Shown here: in pieces, positions 2 through 3,103 of the stretch
How positions within the stretch are numbered: the stretch's first letter is position 1
How the letters are laid out: each line of letters begins with the position of its first letter
DNA from: a virus
Taxonomy: Duplodnaviria; Heunggongvirae; Uroviricota; Caudoviricetes
Reading direction: 5' to 3' (one strand)
DNA: 4,289 bases
IMG/VR virus record: IMGVR_UViG_2585427750_000005
Translations under genes and position numbers: made by a program
Notes under the pieces: generated by a model
Databases searched by the model: none
Seen by the model: only the letters and a program-made list of their open reading frames with translations
Told to the model about the DNA's origin: nothing

Positions 2-163
2 ACCCGCAACATCCGCTTTCCTAACCAAATGATTGAACAAATTAACATCGCTCTTGAGCAAAAAGGGTCCGGGAATTTCTCAGCCTGGGTCATTGAAGCC
101 TGCCGTCGGAGACTAACGTCAGAAAAGAGAGCATATACATCAATCCAAAGTGATGATGGATGA
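2..163 (+). CDS. Partial CDS (5' end outside window): C-terminal part of a small ribbon-helix-helix-like (CopG/Arc-type) DNA-binding protein
   Basis: Open frame enters from the window start and stops at TGA 161-163. Translation ...NQMIEQINIALEQKGSGNFSAWVIEACRRRLTSEKRAYTSIQSDDG shows a helix / G-x-N turn / helix pattern typical of the RHH fold. The internal ATG at 29-31 has no Shine-Dalgarno, so the start is probably upstream of the window. Convergent to the minus-strand operon. Not in the supplied ORF track (edge-truncated). Confidence 0.3.
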   Translation, partial: TRNIRFPNQMIEQINIALEQKGSGNFSAWVIEACRRRLTSEKRAYTSIQSDDG

Positions 164-457: not shown

Positions 458-982
458 TCAATTAATCAGCAGTTCAGGCTGTGTCACCTGCAAAATGTAT
501 TCATGCTCGACAGCCAGGACACGCTTCTCTCTCTTCCGTTCGTTCATTAACCGACTGCCGATCGTACCTTTCAGCTTTGAGCGTGTTTCTTTGATGGCGT
601 AGCGGTGCTGCATTTCTTCGCCAATTGCCATGCGGCGGCTCAGTTGCTCTGCCATCCAGTTGAATGCTGCGATATAGCTCTCCTTGATTGCCGCAGCAGC
701 TTTCCCGGTGAACCCCATCACAACCATGATCCAGCCATCTTTCGTCAGGCTGTACATCGGGCGAACCTTGCCCTGCTCATCGATATAATCAGCCGACGCA
801 AAATTGCGTTGGCTAAACTCACGCGAGCAATCAGCCTTAACCTGCTCGATTTTCCTGAGAACATCACCGTGTCGCTTGCCGAAGTACTTGGCAATTTTTC
901 TGGATGTGGTAACGACCTCTCCGTTTTTGGCTTGCACCATTTCTCGGAAGTCGAAGGCTGGAATAACTGAATGATTATTCAT
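458..982 (-). CDS. rha: Rha-family phage regulatory protein (antirepressor-like)
   Basis: Translation from ATG at 982-980: MNNHSVIPAFDFREMVQAKNGEVVTTSRKIAKYFGKRHGDVLRKI...YSLTKDGWIMVVMGFTGKAAAAIKESYIAAFNWMAEQL, the signature of the phage Rha N-terminal domain. The supplied 255-aa ORF is trimmed to this Met because the upstream in-frame extension runs through a terminator hairpin and has no RBS. Weak SD AAGG about 10 nt upstream. Position downstream of the lysis cassette is typical for rha in P22/phi80-like phages. Confidence 0.85.
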   Translation of the reverse strand: MNNHSVIPAFDFREMVQAKNGEVVTTSRKIAKYFGKRHGDVLRKIEQVKADCSREFSQRNFASADYIDEQGKVRPMYSLTKDGWIMVVMGFTGKAAAAIKESYIAAFNWMAEQLSRRMAIGEEMQHRYAIKETRSKLKGTIGSRLMNERKREKRVLAVEHEYILQVTQPELLIN

Positions 983-1124
983 AGCGTCTTTACCTTTTAG
1001 AAAGTGAGCCTGTCTCACAGAAAAGCCGCCCGAGAGAGGTCGCCACCTATAACGGCATTTCTCAGGCTCTCTTACTGAAAGGCTCTCGTTAATATGCGCG
1101 TGAGATGCGCTGTGAAATTCAGAT

Positions 1125-2592: not shown

Positions 2593-2817
2593 ATTTGCTC
2601 TATTTAATTAGGAATAAGGTCGATTACTGATAGAACAAATCCAGGCTACTGTGTTTAGTAATCAGATTTGTTCGTGACCGATATGCACGGGCAAAACGGC
2701 AGGAGGTTGTTAGCGCAGCCTCTTGCTACCCGCTTTCACGAAGGTCATGTGTAGAAGGCCGCAGCATAACTATCACTGATGAATCTAGGATAGCCAGTGG
2801 CTACGGCTCAGTTTGGG

Positions 2818-2863
2818 TTGTGGCGGCCGGAATCGAACCGGCTTCCATCGGTGCGCTGCCGAT
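2818..2863 (-). other. tRNA-like fragment (anticodon-arm-like hairpin + canonical T-arm + partial acceptor); not an intact tRNA
   Basis: Minus strand: ATCGG-CAGCGCA-CCGAT (5-bp stem, 7-nt loop), then 4 nt, then GCCGG-TTCGATT-CCGGC (canonical T-stem/T-loop with G53-C61-type closing pair), then CGCCACAACCC. The spacing matches tRNA anticodon-arm / variable loop / T-arm geometry, but no D-arm, no U33/purine-37 in the loop, no matching 5' acceptor strand and no encoded CCA could be found. Confidence 0.3.
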
Positions 2864-3020
2864 TGCAGTACGCGCGGCGGTCAGATACATGACTAGTATT
2901 TTCACTATCGCCTATCTGCTAGCTCGCCATTGAGCTTCACCACAACGATAAGAGCACTGCGCGGCACCTTTCGCCAATTCCGCGAGGTCTGCGAGTTCAA
3001 TGCTCTTACCTGTTGTGCAA

Positions 3021-3062
3021 ATAAAAAAGCCACCGTTGCAACTTAAGAGTCACTAACGGCAG
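3021..3062 (-). terminator. Candidate tR'-like promoter-proximal terminator of the late operon
   Basis: Minus strand: CTGCCGTT (17-nt loop) AACGGTGG, then C, then TTTTTT-AT. 8-bp stem with two G-U pairs and a large loop, as in lambda tR'. The downstream sequence TGCACAACAGGTAAGAGCATTGA resembles the sequence just after lambda tR' as recalled. Confidence 0.4.
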
Positions 3063-3073
3063 CTTACCTTCTA

Positions 3074-3103
3074 ATTATGGCTAAATGGCTAATTGCATGT
3101 CAA
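3074..3103 (-). promoter_or_regulatory. Candidate late promoter pR' with qut-like features (sigma70 -35 TTGACA, -10 CATAAT, tandem repeat in the spacer)
   Basis: Minus strand: TTGACA (3103-3098), 18-nt spacer, CATAAT (3079-3074). The -35 lies inside the last Q codons and the -10 just after the Q stop. The spacer contains a perfect tandem direct repeat TTAGCCAT-TTAGCCAT (plus 3077-3092). A -10-like TAAGCT lies at about +2 to +7 of the predicted transcript, a possible sigma-dependent pause element. Confidence 0.45.

Follow-up and report, generated by a model that had tools for sequence, protein, structure and literature searches.

A tRNA-shaped, probably non-decoding RNA in the late leader of a lambdoid phage belongs to a widespread family of phage-borne RNAs with predicted kissing loops

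What does a textbook tRNA T-arm do in the leader of a phage late operon? The question arises from a 4,289-nt stretch of Caudoviricetes DNA (IMG/VR virus record IMGVR_UViG_2585427750_000005; this whole stretch is called the window below), in which a sequence-only reading had described a tRNA-like element at positions 2818-2863 of the minus strand. All the parts it listed (a small hairpin, a 4-nt spacer, a T-arm and an acceptor-like CGCCACA tail) can be read in the sequence, and the gene and promoter coordinates agree with its location in the late leader between the antiterminator gene Q and the holin gene S, where Stx phages are reported to carry the tRNA genes ileZ-argN-argO. The element had been taken for a decayed tRNA remnant or a recombination scar and, as a fallback, for a structured, processed leader RNA. 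On balance, we consider 2818-2863 to be the 3′ part of a complete tRNA-shaped, non-decoding RNA of 127 nt, which represents the T-loop subtype of a larger RNA family and would be processed from the late transcript. The structure and the family assignment are well supported; processing and function are proposed by analogy with tRNAs.

The minimum free energy fold of the minus strand is a cloverleaf with the following parts:

2818-2944, minus strand: whole tRNA-shaped element of 127 nt, from the acceptor 5′ end to the discriminator A
2938-2944, minus strand: 5′ strand of the acceptor-like stem, UGUGGUG, pairing 7/7 with CGCCACA at 2825-2819 (one G.U)
2922-2935, minus strand: D-like arm GCUC-AAUGGC-GAGC with GG in the loop, at the site of the family's H1 hairpin in the covariance model alignment
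2864-2920, minus strand: variable insert of 57 nt, in or beside the anticodon-arm position
2847-2863, minus strand: small hairpin AUCGG-CAGCGCA-CCGAU (5 bp, 7-nt loop), conserved and identical in L307-type copies (see below)
2843-2846, minus strand: GGAA spacer preceding the T-arm
2826-2842, minus strand: T-arm GCCGG-UUCGAUU-CCGGC, its stem being the family consensus H4 stem
2815-2825, minus strand: acceptor-like 3′ strand CGCCACA (2825-2819), A (2818) and CCC (2817-2815), in register with the A-CCA end of Sf6 tRNA-Thr

All four cloverleaf arms are present, with the insert between the D-arm and the small hairpin. The D-like arm at 2935-2922 and the seven acceptor pairs contradict the earlier description of an element without a D-arm, and the extent of 2818-2863, although it marks a real feature, covers only the 3′ third of 2944-2818. 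A8 and A9 (2937-2936) precede the D-like arm, and the T-arm stacks directly on the closing stem. This stem can be extended to 9 bp by G2946 and U2945, the two additional pairs widening the span to 2817-2946, and it covaries across the family and in phage lambda (UGUGCUG/CAGCACA). The 132-nt stretch 2946-2815 was folded by RNAfold into a closed multi-arm cloverleaf of –52.3 kcal/mol (z = –3.47), and none of 200 shuffled sequences was as stable. A single match to the T-loop consensus GGTTCRANTCC is present in the window, where 0.01 would be expected, and three of 200 shuffles reach one match. The insert is partly structured in this fold; an arm predicted within it (CAGAUA/UAUCUG) is not claimed here because it is broken in the variant of Escherichia coli G8.

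How much of a tRNA is this element? Deletion of the insert (2920-2864) in silico leaves 72-73 nt that fold as a perfect cloverleaf, identified by ARAGORN at default settings as tRNA-Arg(GCG) with the anticodon in the loop of the small hairpin. The T-loop UUCGAUU and the GG-containing D-loop AAUGGC satisfy the canonical UUCRANY and G18 G19. The invariant U8, U33 and purine 37 are missing from the sequence, which has A8, A33 and C37 instead, so that the small hairpin does not present a canonical anticodon loop; the encoded 3′ tail is A-CCC and, as noted previously, contains no CCA. Because of A8, A33, C37 and the CCC tail in place of CCA, a decoding role of this tRNA-shaped element is very unlikely. 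ARAGORN in its tmRNA mode (-m) found no match, and the only Rfam match to the element is its 17-nt T-arm against the tmRNA model RF00023 (E = 0.055). In the covariance-model check proposed earlier, the tRNA model stayed at or below 10.2 bits. In E. coli Eco_70239, PGAP (the NCBI pipeline) labels the identical 127-nt span tRNA-Arg (L236:617-743), and a tRNA annotation is present in only one of the 12 genomes listed out of 164 matches. Annotation of this sequence is inconsistent: tRNA-Arg in this RefSeq genome, none in most of the others listed, and in strain G8 a minus-strand “hypothetical protein” that overlaps it.

The leader segment that contains the element is a cassette site. Approximately 120 viral contigs, gathered by anchoring on the conserved S-leader sequence CTGAGCCGTAGCCAC, show alternative fillings between the terminator tR′ and this anchor: tRNA-Asn plus tRNA-Thr in Sf6-type phages, a 133-nt element in the window and HK75, 88 nt in the lambda type, and several further types of 109-221 nt, CUS-3 among them. 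Every non-tRNA type starts with GUUGUG(G/C)UGAA and finishes with C(A/G)(C/G)CACAAC. The 3′ end of Sf6 tRNA-Thr (AACCAGC-A-CCA followed by UAACUGAGCC) lines up exactly with that of the window element (CGCCACA-A-CCC followed by AAACUGAGCC), which upholds the view of a tRNA-like sequence in a slot where related phages carry tRNA genes. The element borders a cassette boundary: lambda identity resumes at CACAACCCAAACTGAGCC, so that the mosaic joint suspected earlier was confirmed against the actual lambda sequence. Lambda itself (L359, NC_001416, 458-542) retains a closing stem, GUUGUGCUG...CAGCACAAC, which is a doubly compensated version of that in the window, while the D- and T-arms are deleted from its Q-S leader copy and the full-length model introduced below matches it weakly (13.7 bits). 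The term “remnant” fits this degenerate copy of lambda and not the window element.

The 109-221-nt types led to a much larger RNA family. Their 5′ end reads AAU-GCGCA-GGCUGA-UGCGC, and a 3′ hairpin GCCGG-AGAUCAGCA-CCGGC abuts the closing stem. In the general plan, the closing stem (consensus GUUGUGGUG...CACCACAAC) is followed by an AAU linker and a first hairpin of 5 bp, and a hypervariable centre (30-250 nt, one to three arms) leads to the last hairpin, GCCGG/CCGGC; these relatives have no anticodon arm. The pattern GGTGAATNCNCAGGCTGATG was found in at least 120 viral contigs from many environments and, in contigs representing one genome per species, in at least 120 bacterial species, including Gamma-, Beta- and Alphaproteobacteria together with some metagenome-assembled genomes (MAGs) assigned to other phyla. 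Of 5426 complete E. coli genomes, 845 carry one particular subtype, and 237 of its sites are on plasmids. The family's 20-nt 5′ motif is further found, without mismatch, in MAGs labelled Saprospiraceae, Coriobacteriia, Anaerolinea, Bacteroides, Acidobacteriota, Phycisphaerales and Verrucomicrobiaceae (loci L375, L377, L378, L386, L397, L398 and L435); either the host range is very broad or phage contigs were mis-binned. In two viral contigs (L285 and L342), the centre holds an extra T-arm-like hairpin (AGUUGG-UUCGAUU-CCAACU and GCGG-UUCGAUU-CCGU, respectively).

Base pairing in this family is backed by covariation. In a core alignment of 54 sequences, three nested helices and a loop-loop helix have 97.8% of their cells paired, a percentage that is inflated because members were chosen for pairing; the weight is carried by the compensatory pair types, with double changes in 16 of 24 pairs. 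None of 500 shuffles reaches the observed values, and slid controls do not come close either. The arms of the closing stem co-vary as well (GAUGCGGUG/CACCGCAUC, GUGUAGGUG/CACCUACAC and others). The partner loops of the family include GGCUGA/AUCAGC, and a search from the 3′ side, with the common loop letters forbidden, recovered members in which both loops had changed together: GGUCGA/AUCGAC, GUGCGA/AUCGCA, GUGAUUA/UAAUCA, UGCUCA/UGAGC and AUGGCAC/UGCCA. Based on these joint changes, the first and last hairpin loops of most members are predicted to kiss through 5-7 Watson-Crick pairs. This kissing helix sits where the D-loop of a tRNA meets the T-loop, and replaces the elbow contact.

Is the window element a member? 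It contains the family's exact closing-stem sequence, the AA linker and the AAG-GCCGG...CCGGC stem, and it lies in the same slot: compared with the family signature (NNNNGGUG/CACCNNNN, then AA(U), with a last hairpin GCCGG/CCGGC that comes after AAG and directly adjoins the 3′ strand), the window reads GUUGUGGUGAA ... GGAAGCCGG-loop-CCGGCCGCCACAAC. We then built a covariance model (R2) from 38 full-length members of the kissing type, with no T-loop type and no sequence of the window's own subtype (type C) in the training set. R2 matches 2946-2817 from end to end (model positions 1-119) with 23.1 bits and a rough E-value of 8.9e-5, and the next-best match within the window has E = 0.64. It also matches HK75 and the T-loop-bearing intermediates L307 and L348. 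The centre behaves as expected for the family, the 57-nt insert differing between window-type and L307-type copies. The loops depart from the kissing design, as AAUGGC and UUCGAUU form at most 3 bp instead of 5-7 complementary pairs. Loops of the tRNA type are also found in L348, L308 and L162, and in one genomic slot L187 carries kissing loops while its relative L348 carries canonical D- and T-loops. Because a full-length model without T-loop types matches the element end to end, its assignment as a T-loop subtype of the family is well supported. In the window element, the canonical tRNA elbow seems to take over the function of loop-loop kissing.

Family members also accompany genuine tRNAs. 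A tRNA lies within 1 kb of 16 of 110 elements; for positions drawn at random from these loci the figure is 4.8% (p = 7e-5). All 16 of these elements share the tRNA strand. The P1-like plasmid pEc-050-T0_3 (L357, 2250-3360 and 4888-5002) carries at least three elements interleaved with tRNA-Asn, -Thr, -Ser and -Ile, all on one strand, in the order tRNA-Asn, tRNA-Thr, a long hairpin (hairpin 1, see below) with an 85-bit element, a short copy, a 75-bit element whose end lies 5 nt ahead of tRNA-Ser, a 31-bit element and tRNA-Ile. Phage RCS47 has this DNA annotated as a protein-coding gene, “plp” (putative lipoprotein), perhaps in error.

Flanking open reading frames (ORFs) were clustered and annotated with Pfam to find recurrent neighbours. 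Antiterminator Q is located upstream of the element in about 30 loci, and lysozyme, holin or spanin genes are located downstream (lysozyme/holin in about 40). In 46 loci, a gene for a CI-type repressor (helix-turn-helix and peptidase S24 domains) ends 131 nt upstream. Other recurrent neighbours are HNH-AP2 endonucleases, terminase genes, upstream of which the element lies, and integrase or SSB genes. The spread of the family over so many contexts favours an RNA gene in its own right over a device tied to the lysis genes. The commonest E. coli subtype is the one directly downstream of, and co-oriented with, the CI-type repressor gene (about 46 fetched loci, e.g. L199); because of this arrangement, its expression may belong to the lysogenic state and not to the late phase of infection.

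In the window, the genes of the lambdoid late region read on the minus strand, and the leader of the late operon, about 450 nt long, includes the element:

3599-3081, minus strand: antiterminator gene Q (PF06530)
3103-3098 (–35) and 3079-3074 (–10), minus strand: late promoter pR′ (promoter scan 11/12)
about 3064-3024, minus strand: terminator tR′, coordinates transferred from HK75 and Sf6 annotations
3024-3103, minus strand: combined pR′ and tR′ region, corresponding to the annotated pR′/tR′ of HK75 and Sf6
2947-3015, minus strand: hairpin 1, long and imperfect, directly 5′ of the element, predicted in the minimum free energy fold
2572-2249, minus strand: holin gene S

A simple terminator scan missed tR′ because its loop measures 17 nt, and the HK75 and Sf6 annotations were used instead. 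The element lies inside the pR′ transcript, downstream of pR′/tR′, which drive and gate transcription through it, and upstream of S.

Based on these observations, we propose that the element is probably a non-decoding tRNA mimic cut from the late transcript by tRNA-processing enzymes. It would be transcribed within a longer RNA, in the window the Q-antiterminated pR′ transcript, and would fold into an L-shape that host tRNA-maturation enzymes might handle as they do a neighbouring tRNA. RNase P would cut the 5′ side, and endo- and exonucleases would trim the 3′ side; with its acceptor stacked on the T-stem, its elbow and its A-CC tail, the element has a geometry compatible with an RNase P substrate. 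A stable small RNA could thereby be released, its tRNA-like frame acting as a scaffold for the variable central arm, the presumed payload, and excision would at the same time part the leader from the lysis mRNA. The fallback of a structured, processed leader RNA comes closest to this proposal.

Several observations weigh against this proposal. The processing step is drawn by analogy with neighbouring tRNAs, and members of the family are not textbook RNase P substrates because their closing helix is mostly 1-2 bp longer than 7 bp and no conserved NCCA/RCC tail follows it (CC at the equivalents of positions 74-75 in 17 of 72 members). The intact window sequence is not called a tRNA by ARAGORN at default settings, and the Rfam tRNA clan CL00001 scores it at 10.2 bits at most, on the T-arm alone, where the gathering score is 29. 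Single changes that disrupt the D-stem or the small hairpin occur in a few prophage copies, and the lambda copy without D- and T-arms means that the element is dispensable for a working phage. Regarding family membership, the E-values are rough, the pairing percentage is inflated as described, and an earlier core-only model (R1) missed the window element and split true members, since it could not bridge long centres; it was replaced by R2. Conversely, L308 is matched by R1 alone (20.2 bits) and not by R2 at E ≤ 1.

A more general proposal can be offered tentatively, and we hold it with less confidence: the family may comprise undescribed, very widespread phage-borne tRNA mimics, “natural tRNA scaffolds” whose frame, held either by a true D-loop/T-loop elbow or by an engineered-looking Watson-Crick kissing helix, would recruit maturation enzymes to excise and stabilize a trans-acting payload, such as a regulator or a decoy for defence or toxin systems that target tRNAs. 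Two candidate roles were rejected. Variable arms acting as anticodon-loop decoys are disfavoured, as only 14 of 135 hairpin loops have 7 nt, which is no enrichment, and one of them is anticodon-like, and stand-alone small RNA (sRNA) genes ending in intrinsic terminators are not indicated, with terminators within 120 nt downstream in 7 of 77 cases compared with 5 of 77 random windows. Rfam 15 contains no family for this RNA according to scans of the window, CUS-3, four family loci and the P1-like tRNA array, which returned the T-arm-only tmRNA match and true tRNAs and nothing else. A full-text literature search including exact sequence strings found no account of the family, with subscription-only papers outside the search, and the literature basis for calling it undescribed is therefore limited.

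Could the element instead be a decayed Arg-like phage tRNA, a functionless pseudogene in a young module that has acquired a 57-nt insertion and point mutations? This would account for A8, A33, C37, the lack of an encoded CCA, the insertion at position 26/27 and the failure of both ARAGORN and the Rfam tRNA model on the intact sequence, and lambda shows that decay does happen in this slot. Of 5426 complete E. coli genomes, 164 contain type-C copies, with identities of 92-99%, and as all of them are at least 92% identical there was little time for selection to show; some contain singletons that break a stem. Their substitutions are nevertheless concentrated in the insert, with 13 of 57 insert columns variable compared with 6 of 69 core columns (p = 0.044), and the natural T-stem variants GUCGG and GCUGG retain G.U pairing. 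Contigs of the L307 type share the window core base for base and have another insert, unrelated or diverged, as well as other flanks. A model that had seen no type-C sequence recognizes the element end to end, and the wider family has the same architecture with abundant compensatory change. Together with the complete cloverleaf, these data run counter to the decayed remnant or scar proposed from the sequence alone, and we judge a pseudogene improbable. G8 may have tandem elements, since R2 matches its sequence a second time (L237, 922-1032; 18.9 bits), some 180 nt downstream of the type-C copy.

A cis-acting leader structure that is never excised, be it a 5′ stabilizer, a pause or antitermination element or a control element for translation of the lysis genes, seems similarly unlikely to us. 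The position between tR′ and S would suit it, as would the frequency of the Q-to-lysis slot among family loci and the neighbouring structures. Hairpin 1 has a conserved base (CAACAGGUAAGAGCA, UGCUCUU..CGUUG) and a variable apex, and accompanies the element in lambda (L359:385-470), in L307 and in the P1-like plasmid (L357:2420-2505 and 2638-2700); on the other side, a terminator-like hairpin followed by GUUUUGCC is conserved with lambda in the S leader (about 2694-2727 of the window, minus strand). Yet the family also resides in tRNA arrays, downstream of CI-type repressors and before terminase, integrase and SSB genes, terminators are not enriched nearby, plain tRNAs replace the element in Sf6-type phages, and the lambda copy is gutted. 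As side observations on hairpin 1, its basal GUUG has two pairing options, an upstream CAAC or the CAAC that ends the element, and its apex in the P1-like plasmid holds a T-arm-like AGGG-UUCGAAU-CCCU of its own.

We consider it very improbable that the inverted repeats GTTGTGGTG/CACCACAAC act at the DNA level as “boundary sequences” for module exchange with an incidental RNA fold: alternative cassettes are indeed exchanged exactly at the arms, and the CUS-3 record has “boundary sequences” marked on either side of the slot, yet the arms co-vary instead of conserving their sequence and the two internal loops co-vary with each other, which implies selection on base pairing within a single strand, and all 16 tRNA-near elements lie on the tRNA strand. 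Least credible is a functional tRNA-Arg(GCG) with an intron-like insertion, for which the single 127-nt PGAP call, the ARAGORN result on the spliced sequence and the canonical T- and D-loops speak, and against which stand the missing U8, U33 and purine 37, the variable and partly structured insert, the tRNA annotation in so few of the genomes listed, the relatives without anticodon arm, the lack of enriched 7-nt loops and the fact that we know of no bacterial mechanism for removing an insert between the D-arm and the anticodon stem.

Which known RNAs does the proposed tRNA mimic resemble? The tRNA-like domain of tmRNA likewise has an acceptor stem and a T-arm around a large insertion at the anticodon-arm site; the element differs from it in lacking G3.U70 (3:70 is U-A), an ACCA end and a tag reading frame, and it is much smaller. 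The bacterial Y-RNA-like YrlA and other tRNA mimics (mascRNA, viral tRNA-like structures) are also non-decoding and copy the elbow of acceptor, T-arm and D-arm. YrlA differs from the element in having both RNA ends on the anticodon side as well as a Ro-binding helix, and the Rfam YrlA model does not match the element. In the engineered “tRNA scaffold” of Ponchon and Dardel, a foreign RNA replaces the anticodon arm and is reportedly processed and stabilized by E. coli enzymes. The family shares with it a conserved frame and a hypervariable centre, but the scaffold is artificial and processing of the family is argued by analogy.

Phage tRNA genes of the Q-to-lysis slot (tRNA-Asn, -Thr and -Leu in Sf6 and phage L; phage 21) have the same position, strand and 3′-end register (PMC8022706) and share with the element a cloverleaf, a canonical T-loop and GG in the D-loop. 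The element is set apart from them by its insert, by A8/A33/C37, by the lack of an encoded CCA and by being missed by ARAGORN at default settings and by Rfam. Its closest functional analogues are RNAC and RNAD of phage T4 (species 1 and 2 RNAs), stable small late phage RNAs of still unknown role (PMC3014915; PMC9697503), which like the element are small phage RNAs (about 120-140 nt) encoded within a tRNA cluster on the tRNA strand; in RNAC, a canonical T-arm precedes a short 3′ strand. Homology was rejected, as R2 had no match in the T4 tRNA region at E ≤ 1, and no kissing-loop design was seen in the T4 RNAs. GOLLD and ROOL are structured phage and prophage RNAs of unknown function often located beside tRNA genes (PMC5737381; PMC12286853); they are 5-8 times larger than the element, have an unrelated architecture, and their Rfam models gave no match. 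In other prophages, the cleavage-derived sRNAs PasA and PasC have been reported directly upstream of holin genes (bioRxiv 10.64898/2026.05.13.724894); no link between the Pas sRNAs, which lie near Q and holin genes, and the element was established.

The remaining genes of the window are as follows, the Rha-family gene and the DUF3950 ORF being ordinary lambdoid accessory genes:

2265-1789, minus strand: endolysin gene R
after R in gene order, minus strand: Rz/Rz1
458-985, minus strand: Rha-family regulatory protein gene (PF09669), downstream of Rz
29-163, plus strand: DUF3950 ORF of 44 amino acids

If our interpretation is correct, the poorly understood Q-to-lysis stretch of lambdoid phages, including the degenerate copy of lambda, would be an RNA gene and not a spacer. 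Such genes would be scattered over phages and prophages of many Proteobacteria; they occur within the tRNA arrays of P1-like plasmids, after repressor genes and before terminase genes. Their annotation varies from tRNA-Arg (one genome) to a hypothetical protein or the “plp” ORF (other genomes), and most genomes have none. The interchange of elbow and kissing helix would amount to a natural experiment on the ways to build the L-shape of a tRNA, and the family would provide a testable handle on phage tRNA-like RNAs such as T4 RNAC and RNAD.

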